Part shown: positions 184-9,152 of the stretch, piece by piece | How positions within the stretch are numbered: the first letter of the stretch is position 1 | How the letters are laid out: each line of letters opens with the position of its first letter | DNA from: Candidatus Iainarchaeum sp. | Lineage (GTDB): Archaea > Iainarchaeota > Iainarchaeia > Iainarchaeales > CSSED10-239 | Length of the DNA: 14,543 nucleotides | Reading direction: 5' to 3' | Assembly (NCBI GenBank): GCA_003559395.1 | Contig: PWLL01000014.1 | Coordinates: 1-14,543 of the forward strand | Position numbers and translations under genes: made by a program | The notes under the pieces: generated by a model | Told to the model about the DNA's origin: nothing | The model's input: the letters and a program-made list of their open reading frames with translations, nothing else | The model's database searches: none

Positions 184-1266
184 TCACATCGACAACAAAT
201 CTTTCTCAAAATTCAAAAAAATCTTTCTTTTTCTTCCTTTGCCTGTATTTATTTCTTCTATTCTTAAAATATTCTGTTTTTCAAACAAAGAAAGATATCT
301 TCTTGCACTTCTTTCAGAAACGATTTGTTTTTTATAAAGTTCAGAAGTTAACATTCCATCTTCTATATTTTTTAAAAAAACCATTTGTTCTTCAGAAAGA
401 AAAGATTTTTTTTCAGAAAACTTAATAGAGTCTATTAATTTTGCAGCTTCTAAAAGATTTTTTTTACTTATCTTTAAAGAGCCTTGTTTTTCAGAAAGCT
501 TTGCTGATTTATATAGAAGGTCAATAGCAATTCGTGCATCCCCTCCTCTTTTTGCAGAAAAACCAGCAACATATCCAATAAAGTCATCAGAAATAACATC
601 TTTAATCAAACCATACTCAACTCTTTCTTTTAATATTTCTTTAAGTTGTTTTGGAGAATATCTAGAAAAAGGAACATTATTTAAAAATAAAGAGCTTTGT
701 GTTCTGGCATCTAGATTTAAGAAAAAGTTTTTATTTTTTGTAATCAAGATTAAACAAAACCTGTTTTTATTTTCAGAAACACGAGATAGATCATATAGGA
801 TTTCAGAACAAGCATCTGAGGATATTTGATCTATTTCATCAATAACAATAATTGGTGTAAAAGAAGCTTTTGAAAGACTTTCTTTTATTCTTTGAAAAAT
901 CTCATCTACAGCAAGCCCTCTTCTAGGAAGAACAATATCAAACAAAAGAGCGATTTTGTGTAAGATAGAATGTTTGGTTTTGTCTGAAATTGCATTAATG
1001 TAGAGGAATTTTATGTTTGAGCTATAACTAATAAGATGATTTAGAATAAATTTAGTTACAAGTGTCTTACCTGTGCCAGGAGGCCCGTAAATAAGAACAT
1101 CTTGTGCTTTTTTCTTTGTTATTAATGGGGACAACAGGTGTTTTATTTCACTTGTTTCTCTCTCTCTTGCATGAATCTCTTCAGGACAATAATCTATATC
1201 AAAAACAGATTCATCTTTAAACAAAGTGTTTATTTTTTTTGAATCTGCGAATATGTTTTTTTTCAA
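184..1266 (-). CDS. cdc6: Orc1/Cdc6 replication initiator (AAA+ domain plus C-terminal winged helix)
   Basis: N-terminal LFKDESVFDIDYCPEEIHARERE matches the Cdc6 pattern (..L..dYvPe.l.hRe.E). Walker A is YGPPGTGKT and Walker B is IVIDEID. GGDARIAIDLL is the sensor-2 region and is followed by a winged-helix-like tail. There is no in-frame ATG upstream of the conserved N-terminus, so initiation must be at TTG (1264-1266), two codons after an in-frame TGA. Confidence 0.93.
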   Translation of the reverse strand: MKKNIFADSKKINTLFKDESVFDIDYCPEEIHARERETSEIKHLLSPLITKKKAQDVLIYGPPGTGKTLVTKFILNHLISYSSNIKFLYINAISDKTKHSILHKIALLFDIVLPRRGLAVDEIFQRIKESLSKASFTPIIVIDEIDQISSDACSEILYDLSRVSENKNRFCLILITKNKNFFLNLDARTQSSLFLNNVPFSRYSPKQLKEILKERVEYGLIKDVISDDFIGYVAGFSAKRGGDARIAIDLLYKSAKLSEKQGSLKISKKNLLEAAKLIDSIKFSEKKSFLSEEQMVFLKNIEDGMLTSELYKKQIVSERSARRYLSLFEKQNILRIEEINTGKGRKRKIFLNFEKDLLSM

Positions 1267-1391: not shown

Positions 1392-2549
1392 TTATGCTTT
1401 TTCTAAATTATATAGCTTTTTTATTTCTTCTATAGTAAGTGCTCTATCATATATTCTAAGTTCATCAACAACACCATTAATTGCTCTTTCAAATGTTGTT
1501 GTGTAACCCCATTTTCCAACAAATATATTTCTATTGCTAAAATTATATTTTATCTCTTTAGAAACTTCTTCATAATTTCTTAAGATACCATCTACATAAA
1601 ATTTTGTTTTTTGTCCGTCATAAGTTGCAACCAAATGATACCATATATTTTCACTTACTGTAACATCATCTGCAAAAATTTGTGAACGTGTATCATCTGT
1701 AAATGATAAATAAAAACCAAATTTGCCTATATTTTCTTGATGTCTTATTATCCATGAATGATAAACAGGCCCTCCGGCCCTAGCTTTACTTAGTATCATG
1801 TTTCCTGTAGAATGGCTGCCAGCACCTTTAATTTTTACCCACAAAGACAAACTAATATTATTTACGTCATAAATAGAGTTATCTCCTAAATCAATATAAG
1901 TATTGATGCCATCATATTTATATGCTTGTCCAACAACTCCATCAACCATTGTTGCGCCCTGAACCGTGCCATGATTTTGATGTTGTGAAGAATCCTTTAC
2001 ATCACCTTCAAACTTCCACCAACCAACTAAACCACACAAAAAATTATCAACTTTTGATAAATCATTTTGAATTACATTTACTCTTATATACGCATTATTT
2101 TCTGTAATAAGATTTACTCTAAAACTAGTTTCTGGAAAACAATCAAGTCTGAAAATTTCTGTTGAGTTTGAAGATAGATAAATAGGTTCTTCTAGATCAA
2201 ACGTTTTATTGTGTAAAGAATCAAAAGAAATATGATCTTTAGAAGGCATGATCTGATAACCAACAATGTTTGCATCTTCTGAAGGATGACTGTTGGCTAA
2301 AGTTACAAAGTTTCCAGAAACTCTTTGAGAAGTAACAAAGCCAGTTAGATTAGATGTAGAAAAGATATCTTCTGTTTCTTTTGTTCTCTCTGTTAAAAAA
2401 TCTGTTCCCCAGCCTAACAAAAGACCAACTAAAGCAACAACGATGACGATCAATAAGATACTTGCGATTAATGGAGAGATGGTTTTTTTGGAAATTTTTC
2501 TTAGTTTAAGTCTATCTTTAAACATTGGGTTTCTTTTTCTTAAGGACAT
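1392..2549 (-). CDS. Pilin-like protein: archaeal class III (prepilin) signal and hydrophobic N-terminus fused to a C-terminal LamG/concanavalin-A-like lectin domain
   Basis: The N-terminus ...KISKKT-ISPLIASILLIVIVVALVGLLLGWGTDF shares its pattern with the three pilins at 5883-7315. The C-terminal ~210 aa carry Laminin_G_3 hallmarks: GLVGWWKFEGDVKDSS.H.NHGTV.GA..V.GVVGQAYKYDG.NTYIDLG, ISLSLWVK, WYHLVATYDGQKTKFYVDG and GVVDELRIYDRALTIEEIKKLY. The start is uncertain: Met1 at 2549 or Met9 at 2525. Confidence 0.85.
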   Translation of the reverse strand: MSLRKRNPMFKDRLKLRKISKKTISPLIASILLIVIVVALVGLLLGWGTDFLTERTKETEDIFSTSNLTGFVTSQRVSGNFVTLANSHPSEDANIVGYQIMPSKDHISFDSLHNKTFDLEEPIYLSSNSTEIFRLDCFPETSFRVNLITENNAYIRVNVIQNDLSKVDNFLCGLVGWWKFEGDVKDSSQHQNHGTVQGATMVDGVVGQAYKYDGINTYIDLGDNSIYDVNNISLSLWVKIKGAGSHSTGNMILSKARAGGPVYHSWIIRHQENIGKFGFYLSFTDDTRSQIFADDVTVSENIWYHLVATYDGQKTKFYVDGILRNYEEVSKEIKYNFSNRNIFVGKWGYTTTFERAINGVVDELRIYDRALTIEEIKKLYNLEKA

Positions 2550-2707: not shown

Positions 2708-2884
2708 ATGCAAATAATAGATAAAAAAAGCTTATGTGAATTTCAAACAAGCTTCTTAATAAAAATAAAACACACGATCCTTAAAAGAATAGAAACAGAA
2801 AAAGAAATAAACAAACCACATACAAGAATGCTATTTGACGTTTTGTCTGAGCTAGATAATAGAAGAATTGATTTTTCTTCTTAA
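2708..2884 (+). CDS. Small hypothetical protein (58 aa from the ATG), possibly a ribbon-helix-helix-like regulator
   Basis: The ORF track begins at GTG 2699, but ATG 2708 has a GGGTGA Shine-Dalgarno-like element (2697-2702) 5 nt upstream. It sits in the largest intergenic region, between divergent pilus-related genes. The pattern KKSLCEFQTS (strand) - FLIKIKHTILKRIE (helix) - KPHTRMLFDVLSEL (helix) loosely resembles CopG/Arc-type RHH proteins. Coding status is unproven. Confidence 0.3.
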   Translation: MQIIDKKSLCEFQTSFLIKIKHTILKRIETEKEINKPHTRMLFDVLSELDNRRIDFSS

Positions 2885-2920: not shown

Positions 2921-2929
2921 AAATATATA
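2921..2929 (+). promoter_or_regulatory. TATA-box-like element for the four-gene pseudopilin-like cassette
   Basis: AAATATATA is centred ~26-29 nt upstream of the TTG/ATG at 2951/2954, which is the spacing expected for a leaderless or near-leaderless archaeal mRNA. It is preceded by a 2 x 9-bp tandem ACAAAAAAT (2901-2918). AT-rich background makes chance matches likely. Confidence 0.3.
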
Positions 2930-2953
2930 CAAAGAAAACAAAAACATTGTTTG

Positions 2954-3445
2954 ATGACAAAACAAAAAGGGTTTTTTAGTATAATAACATTAATGTATAT
3001 TTTAATAATAATAGTAACAACAGAAACAATCACACCACAACTACTAGAAATAGGAACAATGACACTTGCAGAAACACAAAAACAATCAAAAATAATAACA
3101 ATAGAACAGATTATAGAAAATAATCTTGATAACGATATTGAAAATACCTTTATTCTAAAACAAATGATTAATCTTAACTTGATTGCTTTTTTTGAAGAAA
3201 ACCCTCTTTTTGTTTATAACATAATAGATAAACAAAAACAAGAACTTACTTTTGAAAAACTAGACGAACTTTCTAACGTTATTGTCTATAAACCATCAAA
3301 ACATATGCTCATAAAAATATACACAATAACAAACGGTCGTGACAAAAACAAATTTGTTTCTGTAAACCTAAAAAACATAAACTATAAAACTTCTTTTCTT
3401 TTTCCAGAAGGATATACTAAAAGAGTGATTGTTTATAAGCTGTAA
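2954..3445 (+). CDS. Orphan prepilin/pseudopilin-like protein 1 (K-G-hydrophobic N-terminus)
   Basis: N-terminus is M(M)TKQKG-FFSIITLMYILIIIVTT: a short basic leader, then Lys-Gly, then a ~20-aa hydrophobic helix, which is class III signal-like. ATG is at 2954 (TTG at 2951). It is the first gene of a four-gene overlapping cassette. I recognise no family for the remainder. Confidence 0.6.
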   Translation: MTKQKGFFSIITLMYILIIIVTTETITPQLLEIGTMTLAETQKQSKIITIEQIIENNLDNDIENTFILKQMINLNLIAFFEENPLFVYNIIDKQKQELTFEKLDELSNVIVYKPSKHMLIKIYTITNGRDKNKFVSVNLKNINYKTSFLFPEGYTKRVIVYKL

Positions 3446-3665
3446 AGGTGTTTTATCTTTAGAGTTTTTATTCTTTCTTATGATCTTGTTAATGATTATT
3501 GGTTTGTTAATAAACCTTAACACAACAATAGTAAAAGGAATAGAAACACAAGAAATAGAAAAAGAATATATAAACAATATAAAAAACATAAAAAACGAAC
3601 ACTTAGAAAAAATAAACGGTGCTTTTTTTGAAAAAAATATCCAAAGGCCAAATTTTTATTTATGA
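3429..3665 (+). CDS. Orphan prepilin/pseudopilin-like protein 2 (78 aa)
   Basis: N-terminus is MFISCKG-VLSLEFLFFLMILLMIIGLL, with Gly followed by a hydrophobic segment and Glu at +5, as in bacterial type IV pilins and pseudopilins. The only possible start before the KG motif is TTG 3429, directly after an in-frame TGA. It overlaps the upstream gene by 17 nt. Confidence 0.5.
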   Translation: MFISCKGVLSLEFLFFLMILLMIIGLLINLNTTIVKGIETQEIEKEYINNIKNIKNEHLEKINGAFFEKNIQRPNFYL

Positions 3666-4020
3666 AATATTCATTATCTTACTGGTTGTGATTCTTATAA
3701 TATTTATACAACTACAAATAATCAACAACTATTTTTCAGAAATAAAAACAGAAACAAAAGAAACAAAGATTCTAGAAGAAATCTTGTTTGTTGAAACCCT
3801 GATCTCTGATTGTGAATTTCTTGCAAACCAAAAACAAAAAATTTGCTATAAAAATAATATTTCTTTTAATGAAGATATAGAATATAAAAAACACAACCTA
3901 ACAACAATAACAATCAACAACAAAGAATATTATAAATCTGGAGAAAAAAACCGTTGTTATAAAAGAGGAGTCATCTATAAAAGAGCTTTTGCTTTATTAG
4001 AGGTTTGTTATGAAAGATAA
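3619..4020 (+). CDS. Orphan prepilin/pseudopilin-like protein 3 (133 aa, four Cys)
   Basis: N-terminus is MLFLKKISKG-QIFIYEIFIILLVVILIIF, with an acidic residue at +6. The start is GTG 3619 (or TTG 3628) and overlaps the upstream gene. Cysteines are arranged C-x10-C ... C-x17-C. Confidence 0.55.
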   Translation: MLFLKKISKGQIFIYEIFIILLVVILIIFIQLQIINNYFSEIKTETKETKILEEILFVETLISDCEFLANQKQKICYKNNISFNEDIEYKKHNLTTITINNKEYYKSGEKNRCYKRGVIYKRAFALLEVCYER

Positions 4021-4363
4021 AGGTTTTTTTCTTATTGTTGATGTGATGATTGCATTAATAATGATTAGTTTGTTATTAAATCTAACATATGACTCCCACA
4101 CCTACAAAGAATATGAAAGAATAATAATTACTCAACAAATAAATGACCTATTGTTAACGTCTCAACAACAAAGCCTAACATTAAAAGAAATTACAGAAAA
4201 CGCAAAACTTCTTTTACCCCACAGAAGAATAAAAATAAAACATAATCAAAAAATAACTGAAATTAATAAAAATTTAAGATTTACAGAGAAAATCTCAAAT
4301 TCCATAAGATATATTAATAGTTCTAACAAAGAAATATATATAGAGGTAATTGTTTTTTATTAA
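4010..4363 (+). CDS. Orphan prepilin/pseudopilin-like protein 4 (117 aa)
   Basis: N-terminus MKDKG-FFLIVDVMIALIMISLLL strongly resembles the bacterial KGFTLIE-type prepilin N-terminus (Asp at +6). The ATG start overlaps the upstream gene by 11 nt. Confidence 0.6.
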   Translation: MKDKGFFLIVDVMIALIMISLLLNLTYDSHTYKEYERIIITQQINDLLLTSQQQSLTLKEITENAKLLLPHRRIKIKHNQKITEINKNLRFTEKISNSIRYINSSNKEIYIEVIVFY

Positions 4364-4383
4364 ATTTTAAAATAAGAGAATAT

Positions 4384-5115
4384 ATGTTTTACATAATCGG
4401 AATAGGACTACATCCTAAACAAATAACAAAAGAAGCTTTAGAAATTATTTCTTCTTGTGATAACGTGTATATAGACAACTACACAAACCAGTTCTCTTAT
4501 GGCAATACAAAAGACCTAGAAGAAATTATACAAAAAAAAATAAGCGTGCTTAACAGAGAAGAACTTGAACAAGAACAAGAGTTTATAAAAGATAATTGTT
4601 GTTTGTTAGTGATTGGAAATCCCTTATCTGCAACAACACATTTTACTTTGATAGAAGATGCAAATAAAAAAAACATTTCTACAAAAATAATTCCAGGCAT
4701 TTCTATCTTTAACTATAGAGGCGCAAGTGGTTTATCAGAATATAAGTTTGGAAAAACAACAAGTATTGTATTTCCTGAAAAAAACTATTTTCCTAAAAGT
4801 TTTTATGAAACAATTATAAACAATCTTAAAAACGAAGCCCACACCCTATGTTTGTTAGATATAAAAACTAAACAAAAAAAACTCATGAATGTTTTTGAAG
4901 CCTGTGAGATTCTTGAAAAAATTGATACACAAAAACTACTTGAAAATAAACCATGTGTTTTGTTAGCAGGAATGGGTTCTTTTAAAGAAAAAATAACCTC
5001 TTTTATTTTTAAAGATTATAAAAAAATAGAAGGGTCTGTTTATCCACAATCTTTAATAATCTGTTCTTCACTTAATAATATTGAGCAGGAGGCATTAAAT
5101 GAACACAGACAATAA
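4384..5115 (+). CDS. dph5: Diphthine synthase (tetrapyrrole-methylase fold, EF-2 diphthamide pathway)
   Basis: MFYIIGIGL....IT.EALEII..CD.VY.D.YT, GNPLSATTH, IPGISIF, YKFGKTTSIVFPE.NYFP.SFYE.I..N and HTLCLLDIK closely track archaeal Dph5 (for example the Pyrococcus sequence MVLYFIGLGL.., GDPLVATTH, YKFGKSATV.., HTLLFLDIK). Confidence 0.92.
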   Translation: MFYIIGIGLHPKQITKEALEIISSCDNVYIDNYTNQFSYGNTKDLEEIIQKKISVLNREELEQEQEFIKDNCCLLVIGNPLSATTHFTLIEDANKKNISTKIIPGISIFNYRGASGLSEYKFGKTTSIVFPEKNYFPKSFYETIINNLKNEAHTLCLLDIKTKQKKLMNVFEACEILEKIDTQKLLENKPCVLLAGMGSFKEKITSFIFKDYKKIEGSVYPQSLIICSSLNNIEQEALNEHRQ

Positions 5116-5388: not shown

Positions 5389-5886
5389 GTGAAAAAAATG
5401 ATTGTAAAGCTAGAAAATGATTTTTGTAAAATAGAAAATAATAATCTTAAAAGCCAGTTAACAAAAAAAGGAATTGGTTTTAAAAAAGAACTTGATTTCT
5501 ATATAGATCTTTATGAAACTTTTTACCTTTTTTGTAAAAACAAAATAACTGTTAAAAAAGATTCTAAAAACCTATCTAAAAAAGAAATATTAGAGATTTG
5601 TAAAAAAAACATAAAAGATTTTGAAAATAAATTCCTCGTCTATGAAGATTTGAAAAATCAAGGATATATTGTTAAAGATGGCACTAGTTTTGGTTTTGAT
5701 TTTAGAGTTTATAAGAACAAAAACGAACATACAGAGTTTGTAGTCGATGTAATCAAAAGTCAAAAAGATACTATAAACAAAATAATAAAATCAGAAAGAC
5801 TTGCAACAACTATAAACGCAAAATGCGTTTTAGCAATCGTTAGTTTAGAAAAAAAAATAATAAAAATAAAAATAGAAAAACTCTAA
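5389..5886 (+). CDS. endA: tRNA-splicing endonuclease, short catalytic-type subunit
   Basis: VYEDLKNQGYIVKDGTSFGFDFRVYKNKNEHTEFVV....RLATTINAKCVLAIV aligns with M. jannaschii EndA (VYKDLRTRGYIVKTGLKYGADFRLYE...HS.YLV...RVAHSVRKKLLIAIV). The Tyr/His/Lys catalytic residues are all present. The start is GTG 5389 or ATG 5398. Confidence 0.88.
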   Translation: MKKMIVKLENDFCKIENNNLKSQLTKKGIGFKKELDFYIDLYETFYLFCKNKITVKKDSKNLSKKEILEICKKNIKDFENKFLVYEDLKNQGYIVKDGTSFGFDFRVYKNKNEHTEFVVDVIKSQKDTINKIIKSERLATTINAKCVLAIVSLEKKIIKIKIEKL

Positions 5887-6338
5887 TTTTCTCTGCAAGT
5901 AACACTTCTTTGAACATTTGGACATAAACTAGGATTTATTTTTAATGTTGTTGGATTTGTAAAACTTTCAAGGTTTTCAATAGTAGCAGTTGTTGATACT
6001 CCCACACTTAAAGAATTAGTATCAAAATCAACTTCTGTTGTAAGAAAATTATCATCTCTATCTGTTATTACTGCATAGAATTTGTTTCTTTCTGGAAAAT
6101 CCAAATTACCTGTATTTGTTAAAATTACAAACATTTCATTTAATGATGGATAAAAACTACAAGAAGTAATTTTTATATCTGCACCCATACAACTAAAATC
6201 AATTGCATCATCTGCAGTATCTGTGCTACGTCTAACAAAATCAACACCCCAGTTAAGCACCAACGCAGTTATAGCAACTACAACTACGATTAACAAAATA
6301 GTGGCAATAACTGGGGATACTGATTTTTGTTTGTTCAT
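5883..6338 (-). CDS. Archaeal type IV pilin paralog C (class III signal peptide)
   Basis: N-terminus MNKQKS-VSPVIATILLIVVVVAITALVLNWG is of the archaeal pilin N-terminal domain type. There are four Cys: C-x9-C and a C-terminal C-P-x7-C. It starts 12 nt after pilin B, and its stop overlaps the endA stop on the other strand. Confidence 0.85.
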   Translation of the reverse strand: MNKQKSVSPVIATILLIVVVVAITALVLNWGVDFVRRSTDTADDAIDFSCMGADIKITSCSFYPSLNEMFVILTNTGNLDFPERNKFYAVITDRDDNFLTTEVDFDTNSLSVGVSTTATIENLESFTNPTTLKINPSLCPNVQRSVTCREN

Positions 6339-6350
6339 TTATTACACAAT

Positions 6351-6809
6351 TTAACTACATGTTTTTACAACATATCCATCTGATGGACAATCTTGTGCTT
6401 TTACTCTAACTTCGTACTCGTTTTCAGTAATATTCTCGTTTTCAATAGATATTGCTGCTGACTGACCAGGGTTTAACAACTCTAATGCTGAACCTCCGGA
6501 GTTAAGATCAGTTACTGAAATTAAATCGTTTCCAGAACTCAAGTCTGCATCAAATCCTGTAGAATGTACATATGATCCACTTCTATTTCTTAGGATCATT
6601 GATAAAACATTTCCATCTACTGAACAACTATCTATTGCTAGAGTTCCAATTGCTTCGTTACAAGCGCCACCAGCCATACCATCAGCGTCTGCTAATGCGT
6701 CTGTTGCAAAGTCTCTACCCCATGTCAAAACAACTGCGACAAGAATAACAGCCACAACAATTAATAAAATTGTTGCAATTAATGGTGAAACTGCTTTTTT
6801 TGAATTCAT
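6351..6809 (-). CDS. Archaeal type IV pilin paralog B (probable major pilin)
   Basis: N-terminus is MNSKKA-VSPLIATILLIVVAVILVAVVLTWG. The four Cys follow the same pattern (C-x11-C; C-P-x8-C). It has the only perfect GGAGG Shine-Dalgarno in the window, 7 nt upstream of its ATG. It is Gly/Ala/Ser/Asp-rich and visibly less AT-rich than its neighbours. Confidence 0.88.
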   Translation of the reverse strand: MNSKKAVSPLIATILLIVVAVILVAVVLTWGRDFATDALADADGMAGGACNEAIGTLAIDSCSVDGNVLSMILRNRSGSYVHSTGFDADLSSGNDLISVTDLNSGGSALELLNPGQSAAISIENENITENEYEVRVKAQDCPSDGYVVKTCS

Positions 6810-6816
6810 TATATTT

Positions 6817-6821
6817 CCTCC
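6817..6821 (-). promoter_or_regulatory. Shine-Dalgarno element (GGAGG) of pilin B
   Basis: The minus strand reads AAGGAGGAAATATA-ATG, with 7 nt between GGAGG and the start codon. Other genes here show only partial (GAGGT, GAGGA, GGGTGA) or no SD elements. Confidence 0.7.
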
Positions 6822-6841
6822 TTAATTTGTATTAAGATTTA

Positions 6842-7315
6842 TTAACGACAAGTTGCTGTCGTAAATTGATCTGGACAAGAATCTACAAAAATTCTTGTTC
6901 TAACAGGACTTTCAAGTCCTTCAAAGTCTTCTGGATCGTTTGGATCTTCAAAGTTTATTGATCTTATTTGCATGGCTCTGTTTGTAAATGCTGTTTCTAA
7001 TGCGGCTGTAGCTATATCTCCGTTTGCATCTGTTACTAGTATGTTTAATTTATCATTTATTTCAACTGTTGAATTATCCATAAGAACTAATGATAGACCA
7101 GTTGAAGGATCGTAACTACAACCAGTATCAATATTAATTCTTACATAATTACACTCACCCCATGCTTCTGTGGTTTCTGTAATTGACTCTGTTGTTTCTC
7201 TCGCACTTTGAGAAGACCAAGAATATAAAATACCTGCTAATGATAAAGCAACTGCAACTAACAAAATAGTTGCAATCAATGGCGAAACTGCCTTAGATTT
7301 TTTTTTTAATATCAT
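6842..7315 (-). CDS. Archaeal type IV pilin paralog A
   Basis: N-terminus is MILKKKSKA-VSPLIATILLVAVALSLAGILYSW. The four Cys follow the same pattern (C-x10-C; C-P-x8-C). It is preceded by a 2 x 23-bp tandem repeat in its promoter region. Confidence 0.87.
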   Translation of the reverse strand: MILKKKSKAVSPLIATILLVAVALSLAGILYSWSSQSARETTESITETTEAWGECNYVRINIDTGCSYDPSTGLSLVLMDNSTVEINDKLNILVTDANGDIATAALETAFTNRAMQIRSINFEDPNDPEDFEGLESPVRTRIFVDSCPDQFTTATCR

Positions 7316-7436: not shown

Positions 7437-8252
7437 TTAAACAATAAACAATAATGACACCACCACATATACAGGAATAGAAACACACAACAAAATTATC
7501 GAATGTTTGATGCCCGCAGTCGCACTACCTTCTGAGATTTTACCAATTACGGGCCCTGCAAAACCTCCCTGAATAACTAAAAGATACAAAAAATATGTGT
7601 TAAAGTTAACTTCCTCCATAGAGGTGTCTCCGCCTGTAGCCCCTGCAAGTTCTGTTGTTGTTAACATTGGCAAAAACACAATTTGAATAATTAATATAAT
7701 AGCAATAAAAACAAAAAACATAAAATATGAAGAAAAAACAGAAGTAAATGTTTTTGATTTCCTTTCTTCTGTCATTTCATTTATTGTTTTTACATAACCA
7801 GAAACAGAAGAAAAAATCTTAATTAAATTTCCTCCGTATTTTGTACTTTCTGAAATTACTTCTGCAGATTTTGCAAACATAGGACTATCGATTTCTGAGA
7901 AAATGTTTACTAGTGCTTGGTCAAAAGGGATCCCTATTTTTACTTGTGCAGCTAATCGTTTTACTTCTGTATTTAAAGAACCATAATTGTTATCACACAA
8001 AATCTCCATAGAAGTAACTATATTCATTCCACCTCTTAAAAGGTCTTTTAGATCTTCTAAGAAAACAAACAGATTTTGTTCATAGGACTTAATTTTTGCA
8101 GTATATATTCCTGCAGCAATTCCAACACTTACTACAAAAGGAAAAATAGAAAAAACAAACAAATTAGTATTGAACAATAAAATTGCTGCAATTATTGAGC
8201 CAATTGCGCCCTTGATCGCAAAGCCCTTTATATATTTTAATCTTTTGTTCAT
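7437..8252 (-). CDS. FlaJ/PilC/TadC-like polytopic membrane protein with a single T2SS-F-type domain (platform, second half)
   Basis: N-terminal TM helices are followed by a cytoplasmic helical domain (FLEDLKDLLRGGMNIVTSMEIL...LNTEVKRLAAQVKIGIPFDQALVN....SPMFAKSAEVISESTKYGGNLIKIF) and then C-terminal TM helices. This is the T2SSF-domain architecture. Confidence 0.75.
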   Translation of the reverse strand: MNKRLKYIKGFAIKGAIGSIIAAILLFNTNLFVFSIFPFVVSVGIAAGIYTAKIKSYEQNLFVFLEDLKDLLRGGMNIVTSMEILCDNNYGSLNTEVKRLAAQVKIGIPFDQALVNIFSEIDSPMFAKSAEVISESTKYGGNLIKIFSSVSGYVKTINEMTEERKSKTFTSVFSSYFMFFVFIAIILIIQIVFLPMLTTTELAGATGGDTSMEEVNFNTYFLYLLVIQGGFAGPVIGKISEGSATAGIKHSIILLCVSIPVYVVVSLLFIV

Positions 8253-8264
8253 ATTTTATTTCCT

Positions 8265-9152
8265 CTACGAAAGCATTTGTAATAAAACTAAAAAAATTAT
8301 ATTTACTACAGGTATTAAAAAAAATATTCCTATTAACATTAAAGCAGACACACTAAGCCCGCCAATAGCAGTGCCTCCAATCATTCCTAACAACATTATG
8401 GTTGAAAACAAAAACAATGGACCAGCAATAACAACAGCAGAATAAATGTCTCCAAAAGTTTCTGCTTTTTTATTCATTTTATCAAGCATAAGGTTGTACA
8501 TAAACTGAGCATGTTCTGCTTTCTTTTTCATAAAATCAGAAATGGACCCACCTGCTTGTATATTTGACTTAAGTTCTCTTAAAAACTTTTTAAGTTCTAA
8601 AGAAGGTGTTTTTTCTGAAACAATATCTATGGCCTCTAGTAAAGAAATTCCTAAATTGTCTATATAGTGTGTAAGTTTATTAAGTTCCTTATTAACATAT
8701 GGCGTTTCTTTACTTATTGAAGCTGTATGAAACATAGCTTCTGGTGGTGCACCAGATTCAGCAATACTTGACATACTTAATATAGATAAAGAAAAATTAT
8801 TTTTTATTTGTTCTGTTTTTGTCATAACATCAATATATGGTTTAACCATTGCGTAAATAATCACACCTAAAAAAACAAAAATACCAATAATAAATAAAAT
8901 AAAAATATCTTCTAAAGAATTAGTTACAACTAAAAACAGACTTCCAAAAAACAACAACAAAATAGTTGCAAACACAGCAAAAAAAAGATATTTGGACATA
9001 TAATAATCAAGATCATCTAGATTATCTGATTGTTGCAATTTGAGTTCTATTTCTGGAATTTGAATTTTTTTAGTAATAGGCATAAATAACGTATACATCT
9101 GTTCTTCAAACTTATCTGGTTTCTTTTTTGGAATTGTCTTTTCTTTTTTCAT
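8265..9152 (-). CDS. FlaJ/PilC/TadB-like polytopic membrane protein with a single T2SS-F-type domain (platform, first half)
   Basis: TM helices are followed by LSILSMSSIAESGAPPEAMFHTAS....YVNKELNKLTHYIDNLGISLLEAIDIVSEKTPSLELKKFLRELKSNIQAGGSISDFM and then further TM helices, which is the typical FlaJ/TadB cytoplasmic domain pattern. It lies 12 nt upstream of the second half-gene. Confidence 0.78.
   Translation of the reverse strand: MKKEKTIPKKKPDKFEEQMYTLFMPITKKIQIPEIELKLQQSDNLDDLDYYMSKYLFFAVFATILLLFFGSLFLVVTNSLEDIFILFIIGIFVFLGVIIYAMVKPYIDVMTKTEQIKNNFSLSILSMSSIAESGAPPEAMFHTASISKETPYVNKELNKLTHYIDNLGISLLEAIDIVSEKTPSLELKKFLRELKSNIQAGGSISDFMKKKAEHAQFMYNLMLDKMNKKAETFGDIYSAVVIAGPLFLFSTIMLLGMIGGTAIGGLSVSALMLIGIFFLIPVVNIIFLVLLQMLS

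Follow-up and report, generated by a model that had tools for sequence, protein, structure and literature searches.

Among described archaeal filaments, the Epd pili of Methanococcus maripaludis (with MMP1685/EpdE as the major pilin and EpdA-D as minor ones; family PF04021/DUF361, system 1 or clade 1) come closest to the subject of this report, a cassette of four overlapping + strand open reading frames (ORF1 to ORF4, of 163 or 164, 78, 133 and 117 amino acids (aa)) in a 14,543-nucleotide (nt) stretch of DNA from the archaeon Candidatus Iainarchaeum sp. (contig PWLL01000014.1; the whole stretch is hereafter called the window). The pilins of M. maripaludis carry class 3 signal peptides of 5-13 aa that end in Gly and are followed by Gln at position +1 and Glu at position +5; its small pilins measure 67-76 aa and the minor pilins EpdA-C 130-156 aa, several of the minor pilins are essential, and the ATPase is encoded together with two membrane components at a separate locus (PMC3875500). 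For clade 1 of the archaeal pili, Makarova et al. (PMC4858521) describe loci with a pair of TadC genes and five or more presumed minor pilins. Archaeal system 1 has two platform genes and is placed in methanogens, Thermococcales and DPANN; some DPANN loci of subsystem 4A likewise have two (bioRxiv 10.64898/2026.04.22.720090).

We conclude, with a probability of roughly 0.6, that ORF1 to ORF4 encode four lineage-specific proteins that resemble type IV pilins and bear class III signal peptides, most likely minor pilins, and that these would most probably serve the neighbouring Epd-like or 4A-like filament system. The cassette resembles the Epd genes in the Lys/Arg-Gly leader, in the Gln at +1 of ORF3 and of some ORF2 orthologues, in the Glu at +5 of ORF2, in two size classes of ~70 and ~115-165 aa, in having several pilin-like genes per operon, and in the company of two TadC-like platform genes, with no ATPase in the same locus. 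Unlike the Epd pilins, ORF3 and ORF4 have their acidic residue at +6 and ORF1 has none, the heads lack detectable homology to any described family, the platform genes sit with Pilin_N rather than PF04021 pilins, and the fetched loci hold no EppA homologue. The type of system is not settled, because two platform genes are also a feature of DPANN subsystem 4A. Small operons of diverse minor pilins are already established for archaeal type IV filaments, and a literature search returned no description of this cassette; we are dealing not with a new kind of system but with undescribed families within a known archaeal kind.

Signal-like N-termini of ORF1 to ORF4

Each of the four proteins starts with a basic leader of 3-10 residues that ends in Lys-Gly and runs directly into a hydrophobic stretch. 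In particular, ORF1 begins MTKQKG/FFSIITLMYIL (the slash marks the boundary from which positions are counted) and has no acidic residue nearby, nor is one conserved in its family; ORF2 begins MFISCKG/VLSLEFLFF, with Glu at +5; ORF3 reads ..KKISKG/QIFIYEIFII, with Gln at +1 and Glu at +6; and ORF4 begins MKDKG/FFLIVDVMIAL, with Asp at +6. The leaders, the hydrophobic stretches and the acid at +5 or +6 in three of the four proteins thus stand as quoted in a preliminary description of this DNA. Lack of the motif in relatives would, by that description, have refuted it, but the motif persists: in all four families, Gly or Ala invariably stands right before the hydrophobic segment, with Lys or Arg in front of it. 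The family motifs are [KR][GA]/F[FAIV]S[IVL]..LLF for ORF1 (17 sequences; Phe at +1 conserved), K[GA]/[QVIS]xS[LI]EF for ORF2 (7 sequences; Ser-x-Glu at +3 to +5 conserved, and Gln at +1 in some orthologues), K[GA]/Q[IV]x[IV]x[DE] for ORF3 (25 sequences; Gln at +1, Asp or Glu at +6) and [KR]G/[FI]x[FL]x[IV]D.x[IL]AL for ORF4 (10 sequences; acid at +6). This boundary looks like a class III signal peptidase site; a Gly or Ala that follows Lys or Arg and abuts a hydrophobic segment is not something that a plain membrane anchor would require.

The run of signal motifs in the cassette is far above chance. A class-III-like rule, which asked for K/R-G/A in the first 15 residues and next for strong hydrophobicity in no fewer than 14 of 20 residues with at most one charge, gave 0.015 matches per window in first-order-Markov random windows, with a maximum of 1 in 200. 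Applied to the real window, the rule picked out ORF2, ORF3 and ORF4 consecutively. It also selected two of the known pilins and, falsely, a polytopic protein of the TadC-like kind; ORF1 narrowly fails, with 13 of 20 residues strongly hydrophobic. Profile comparison with hhalign aligned the N-termini of ORF3 and ORF4 over 33 columns (probability 73%, expectation value (E) 3e-5) and those of ORF2 and ORF3 (E 2.6e-4), and found the head domains unrelated. N-termini that are alike on heads that are not are the typical picture for pilin paralogues.

The preliminary description had read the motif as bacterial and not archaeal, an assignment that the sequences do not support. The archaeal Pfam family PF04021 (Class_IIIsignal), whose mature N-terminus is of the QxSxExxxL type, is matched by four of the seven ORF2 orthologues (best E 2.6e-5), although not by the window's own copy of ORF2, nor by its copies of ORF1 and ORF4; the Epd pilins share the same features, and relatives also encode, a few kilobases upstream of the cassette, two more proteins that match PF04021 (described below). 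Three ORF2 orthologues also match TadF weakly. Bacterial models score only below their cut-offs: among NCBIfam families, ComGE matches the window's ORF2 with E 2.5e-5 and 24.3 bits (cut-off 49) and ComGD matches its ORF4 with E 0.0097 and 16.3 bits (cut-off 70), and the Forterrea orthologues of ORF2 and ORF4 gave no ComGE or ComGD match in the same search. These sub-threshold scores probably reflect the shared N-terminal helix and a Lys/Ile/Asn-rich composition. None of the window's four proteins matches the bacterial N-methylation domain (N_methyl) in Pfam, and none combines a ComG/Gsp family match at the curated cut-off with Glu at +5, as a bacterial minor pseudopilin would. Both signal types encoded here (K-G followed by a hydrophobic stretch with an acid, and VSPLIATILL) are, as judged from these sequences, archaeal. 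We accordingly rejected the idea of a bacterial-type pilin, possibly transferred from bacteria: the motif is of the archaeal PF04021/Epd type, and the homologues come from one archaeal lineage.

The cassette does share the general design of the bacterial minor (pseudo)pilin sets (GspH-I-J-K, FimU-PilV-W-X and ComGD-E-F-G). It consists of four different small genes, tightly coupled within an operon, the likeness among its members is confined to the N-terminal helix, and the larger ORF1, as GspK, lacks the conserved acid. It differs from them in that ComGE and ComGD score below cut-off, in that there is no structure match to GspH-K or PilVWX, and in its host, an archaeon whose other pilins are of archaeal type.

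Gene structure and conservation of the cassette

ORF1 to ORF4 are genuine, conserved genes under purifying selection. The relatives recovered with the cassette go by the names Candidatus Iainarchaeum sp., Diapherotrites archaeon and, for one, Candidatus Forterrea multitransposorum, which makes the source a DPANN archaeon of the Diapherotrites/Iainarchaeota. All homologues belong to this single archaeal lineage. The ORF1 family has 19 representatives among 1.84 billion proteins, all of ~160-175 aa; a profile search with ORF3 gave 26 clusters, all of ~122-138 aa and all annotated 'hypothetical'; and the homologues of ORF4 are 41-61% identical. The gene order ORF0-1-2-3-4-dph5 (ORF0 being a small gene upstream of the cassette; Table 1) and the same overlaps are kept in relatives down to ~30-40% identity. 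Indeed, as the preliminary description had asked of the four-gene order, it is preserved in every related locus fetched, and each locus that spans the region contains the common string Cdc6, a 54-59 aa ORF0, ORF1 to ORF4, diphthine synthase, DUF357 and EndA, followed, where contigs extend further, by 3-4 pilins, two TadC-like genes, DRG, a methyltransferase and TatD. In the comparison with the least saturation, that of loci L009 and L011 (synonymous divergence, dS, 0.3-0.5), the ratio of nonsynonymous to synonymous divergence (dN/dS) is 0.11 for ORF1, 0.15 for ORF2, 0.20 for ORF3, 0.18 for ORF4 and 0 for ORF0. The ratio spans 0.11-0.49 for ORF1, goes up to 0.85 for ORF2 and spans 0-0.28 for ORF0.

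Table 1 The cassette and surrounding features in the window
Feature	Position	Strand	Remarks
ORF0	2708..2884	+	58-aa soluble protein; lies before ORF1 in every related locus examined
AT element	2921..2932	+	TATA-box-like; ~25-30 nt upstream of the ORF1 ATG; read from the sequence
ORF1	2954..3445	+	163 aa from ATG; 164 aa from TTG one codon earlier (2951)
ORF2	3429..3665	+	78 aa; TTG start
ORF3	3619..4020	+	133 aa; GTG 3619, with TTG 3628 as alternative start
ORF4	4010..4363	+	117 aa; ATG start
LamG pilin	1392..2549	-	Pilin_N-type N-terminus (..KKT/ISPLIASILL) and LamG/ConA-like domain; Laminin_G_3 E 3.5e-23
Three tandem Pilin_N-type pilin genes	5883..7315	-	151, 152 and 157 aa; ..K[AS]/VSP[LV]IATILL
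Two adjacent TadC/FlaJ-like platform genes	7437..9152	-	271 and 295 aa; PF00482 (T2SSF) E 1.1e-15 and 3.5e-10

The coordinates bear out the sizes and the overlaps of 11-47 nt given in the preliminary description. ORF1 and ORF2 overlap by 17 nt, ORF2 and ORF3 by 47 nt (38 if TTG 3628 is used), and ORF3 and ORF4 by 11 nt; across relatives the corresponding ranges, from locus coordinates, are 7-17, 38-47 and 8-11 nt. This conserved translational coupling suggests that the four proteins act together.

Two of the ORFs do need non-ATG starts, as had been claimed. The Lys-Gly of ORF2 can be reached only from TTG 3429, the codon before which is a TGA stop, and that of ORF3 requires a start at GTG 3619 or at TTG 3628, the latter with GGTG 7 nt upstream; the ATG of ORF4 has GAGGT 5 nt upstream. 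Public gene calls on the same DNA begin ORF2 at an internal ATG (61 aa; L001 922-1107) and ORF3 at an internal GTG (110 aa; L001 1130-1462), which trims the signal motif, along with a portion of the hydrophobic helix, from the database entries; the entries for these two families are thus partly truncated. At the protein level, conservation extends to the residues upstream of the public starts, and all relatives except L009, which has CTG, keep the TTG of ORF2.

Upstream of ORF1, the AT element of Table 1 has a similar counterpart (TATAAATA/ATATATA) at comparable spacing in most of the orthologous intergenic regions. By its sequence it may be an archaeal promoter that gives rise to a short-leader or leaderless ORF1-4 transcript; because the DNA is ~76% A+T, such an element is weak evidence for a promoter. 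Within the window, where the guanine-plus-cytosine (GC) fraction varies from 0.24 to 0.35, the cassette stands at 0.24-0.25 (3001-4500) and the three Pilin_N genes at 0.32-0.35 (6001-7000). The lower GC of the cassette would fit lower expression or weaker constraint than in the Pilin_N genes.

Among the five genes, ORF0 is under the strongest constraint. Its family members (54-59 aa) follow the pattern M.I..R.EL..F.T.FL..IK.TLLKR...MLIDVLSE.D.R, and the window's copy has a Shine-Dalgarno-like GGGTGAT 5 nt upstream of its ATG. Searches of Pfam and the PDB gave nothing significant and NCBIfam gave no family; the best PDB match, a 'putative transcriptional regulator' (7kd3), had a non-significant E of 0.038.

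Predicted structures and the pilus neighbourhood

The preliminary description had called for structure prediction, and for the two families modelled here the predicted architecture is that of an N-terminal helix followed by beta-strands. The AlphaFold model of ORF1, built on an alignment of 17 sequences, has a predicted local distance difference test score (pLDDT) of 87.8 and a predicted template modelling score (pTM) of 0.71, and consists of a helix at residues 4-58 (with lower confidence at ~21-40), a second helix at 65-79 and then seven strands. The model of ORF3, built on 25 sequences (pLDDT 85.8, pTM 0.58), has a helix at residues 9-63 and then six strands. In both models, a predicted N-terminal helix of ~55 residues leads into the strands in the order of a pilin-like lollipop. 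ORF2 is too short for a head domain. In ORF4, Gly5, Asp11, Ala15 and Leu16 are invariant in 10 orthologues, and a C-terminal YINSSNKEIYIE motif is mostly invariant. That motif (residues 101-112; window 4310-4345) contains an N-S-S sequon and could be a conserved N-glycosylation site.

Cysteines occur in pairs. ORF3 holds four, of which Cys65 and Cys76 are nearly invariant and are lost together in two family members; the second pair occupies different positions in the two clades and is always paired. In ORF1 and in ORF2, one clade has two cysteines and the other clade lacks them. Because they are gained and lost in pairs, these cysteines are likely to form disulfides, and their pattern would imply an extracytoplasmic location of ORF1, ORF2 and ORF3.

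The cassette lies among housekeeping genes (those in the window encode Orc1/Cdc6, diphthine synthase, tRNA-splicing endonuclease, CDC48 and a DRG-type GTPase) and 1.5-4.8 kilobases upstream of three pilin genes and a pair of TadC-like genes (Table 1). The three pilins match Pilin_N (PF07790) over the N-terminus below the cut-off of 25.2 bits (15-21 bits; E 5.8e-4 to 0.036), are syntenic in all relatives and are candidate major filament subunits; the TadC-like pair is conserved in relatives as well. ORF4 abuts or overlaps dph5 in relatives, the overlap in L003 being 14 nt.

On the other side of the cassette, between Cdc6 and ORF0, lies a slot of variable content. The window has the LamG pilin there, transcribed divergently; the slot is empty in L003, L004, L009 and L013, and contains a KilA-N gene in L015, in which KilA-N and Fic genes lie nearby, and a different Pilin_N-type protein in L007 (36-1436, - strand), for which a weak FGE-sulfatase Pfam match is on record. 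This suggests that the slot is a hot spot for the exchange of surface proteins. The suggestion in the preliminary description that the cassette presents the LamG pilin is weak on the same data, and we rejected a conserved partnership of the two since the LamG gene is absent from this position in most relatives; that two different modular pilins occupy the slot does no more than hint at a tie between the cassette and pilins of the adhesin-like sort. The residue at -1 of a pilin signal is usually Gly or Ala. Two of the Pilin_N-type proteins depart from this at the predicted -1 position, with Thr in the LamG pilin (KKT/ISPLIAS) and Ser in the 151-aa pilin (5883-6338; KQKS/VSPVIAT).

The cassette adjoins Orc1/Cdc6 (window 184-1266, - strand), with an intergenic stretch of 150 nt (2550-2700) before ORF0, and in the complete Forterrea genome it sits at the very end of the 839,632-base-pair record (L011, CP045477.1 827817-839632). 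Because of these two placements the whole pilus region may be origin-proximal. Past Cdc6 and PCNA, beyond what would be the left end of the window, relatives carry a conserved gene trio (L013 5822-6956; also L004 2525-3647 and L015 2799-3908). The first member encodes a short pilin of 63-67 aa that matches PF04021 at about the gathering score (67 aa and ..EKA/QLSAEM in L013), the second a protein of 132-136 aa (in L013 134 aa, PF04021 at about the gathering score, ..QKA/QISLEY), and the third a membrane protein of 170-172 aa with a HELAH motif in L013 and weak matches to Peptidase_M50B and DUF3267. From these weak sequence features, the third might be a zinc-protease-like membrane protein encoded beside pilin genes.

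Probable minor pilins and alternative readings

Taken as minor pilins, the four proteins would behave as follows. Each would enter the membrane by its N-terminal hydrophobic helix, and a PibD/EppA-type class III signal peptidase would cut off the basic leader of 3-10 residues after the conserved Gly or Ala, leaving mature proteins of ~158, 71, 123 and 112 aa (ORF1 to ORF4). These would be assembled through their N-terminal helices by a type IV filament machinery, that of the nearby TadC-like platforms and Pilin_N pilins, as low-abundance (minor) subunits that plausibly make up a complex for initiation or at the tip; through the overlap of the frames, which every relative conserves, their synthesis would stay coupled. 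Because ORF1 is the largest and alone lacks the conserved N-terminal acid, it would be the natural candidate for the distal-most subunit. Cleavage, incorporation into a filament, the machinery used and minor as opposed to major status are here all inferred. The minor-pilin set put forward in the preliminary description nevertheless emerges as the best reading, because the genes are conserved, their N-termini are of pilin type, and ORF1 and ORF3 have the predicted layout.

Several results weigh against it. At the N-terminus, the acid stands at +6 rather than +5 in ORF3 and ORF4 and is missing from ORF1, the ORF3 orthologues have no PF04021 match in Pfam, and the window's own four proteins match no Pfam family at E<=1 except noise. 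Neither a pilin nor any other fold was returned when the models of ORF1 and ORF3 were compared with the PDB by Foldseek (best E 0.29 and 2.2), sequence-profile searches of the PDB with all four families came back empty, and Pfam and NCBIfam hold no family for ORF1, ORF3 or ORF4. The profile and structure comparisons that had been proposed thus gave a predicted pilin-like layout for ORF1 and ORF3 and no match to a known pilin fold; and the globular parts, said in the preliminary description to match nothing, are new as far as Pfam, PDB-sequence and Foldseek searches reach. Pilin heads are notoriously variable, and because of this the negative head searches are weak evidence. In the genome, three housekeeping genes (dph5, DUF357 and EndA) separate the cassette from the pilus genes. 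The cassette is always near pilins and TadC, and equally always beside Cdc6, dph5, DUF357 and EndA; with one lineage and a frozen gene order, synteny cannot tell functional linkage from inheritance. Co-occurrence with a prepilin peptidase had been put forward as a further check, and at the level of loci it gave no support: neither a prepilin peptidase (A24) nor a PilB/FlaI-type ATPase is encoded in the window or in the fetched loci L001-L019.

A more specific form of the minor-pilin reading, drawn by analogy, raises the possibility of a 1:1:1:1 priming or tip complex of ORF1 to ORF4. The conserved overlapping arrangement of the four genes lends a complex some indirect support. It would be an archaeal counterpart in function of GspHIJK or FimU-PilVWX with unrelated heads, and it would cap the pili of DPANN cells that depend on a host or have a minimal metabolism, and display the interchangeable modular adhesin pilins of the variable slot (with a LamG domain here, and in a relative with the domain that weakly matches the FGE-sulfatase family). 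We regard this version as doubtful.

Alternatively, ORF1 to ORF4 could form a short filament or pseudopilus of their own, apart from the Pilin_N pili, with ORF2 as its repeating subunit and minor roles for ORF1, ORF3 and ORF4; its function could be host-cell adhesion or the uptake of DNA or nutrients. In size (~71 aa when mature) and in its PF04021-type N-terminus, ORF2 is like the small Epd-type pilins, the cassette comes with a candidate promoter of its own, and its signal (K-G followed by Q or F, with an acid) differs from the K-A/VSPLIATILL of its neighbours in the way that EppA and FlaK have separate substrates in Methanococcus. However, relatives offer a better candidate for an Epd-type major pilin in the 67-aa PF04021 gene upstream of PCNA/Cdc6, ORF2 evolves fast (dN/dS as high as 0.85), the GC of 0.24 in the cassette as against 0.32-0.35 in the Pilin_N genes gives no sign of high expression, and no second machinery was seen. 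We consider a filament of this kind improbable.

To another alternative we assign a comparably low probability, namely that the four are uncleaved, N-terminally anchored envelope proteins that serve as anchors or accessory factors like ArlF and ArlG (FlaF and FlaG). ArlF and ArlG, which are monotopic, combine a beta-rich head with an N-terminal helix like that of pilins, and they bind the S-layer or form a stator. The cassette proteins resemble them in the N-terminal hydrophobic helix, the beta-rich extracellular domain and a similar size, and FlaF is documented as a pilin-like protein outside the filament (PMC4425475). Heads that match no pilin fold and the lack of a peptidase in any fetched locus would fit such proteins, as would the missing acid in ORF1 and its being out of register in ORF3 and ORF4; moreover, our rule picks out a polytopic TadC protein too, which means that the motif alone is not specific. 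Yet four families with unrelated heads all keep an invariant [KR][GA] at the start of the hydrophobic segment, with conserved residues at +1 and at +5 or +6, and in this cleavage-type motif they are unlike ArlF and ArlG. ORF2 orthologues match PF04021, and none of ORF1 to ORF4 matches the ArlF or ArlG models in NCBIfam; the one weak ArlG match (E 0.0067) belongs to the 67-aa PF04021 protein of a relative.

Finally, that ORF1 to ORF4 are untranslated chance frames has a negligible probability and was ruled out by conservation and purifying selection: a GC of 0.24 does promote long Ile/Lys/Asn/Phe-rich ORFs, two of the four depend on non-ATG start codons and gene callers do not agree where they begin, but all four stay open in relatives at 30-60% identity, with length, order and overlaps kept, dN/dS is 0.11-0.20, the motif is expected only 0.015 times per random window, and the AlphaFold models are confident.

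The genomes of DPANN archaea are tiny, their surface filaments are thought to mediate contact with other cells, and most of their pilin genes are unannotated. To the inventory of the Iainarchaeota pilus region the present analysis adds four undescribed, lineage-restricted pilin-like families and the linked ORF0, and it corrects the start codons of two mis-called pilin-like genes, ORF2 and ORF3. The cassette thereby provides a four-protein candidate for asking whether archaeal pili use minor-pilin initiation complexes like those of bacteria.

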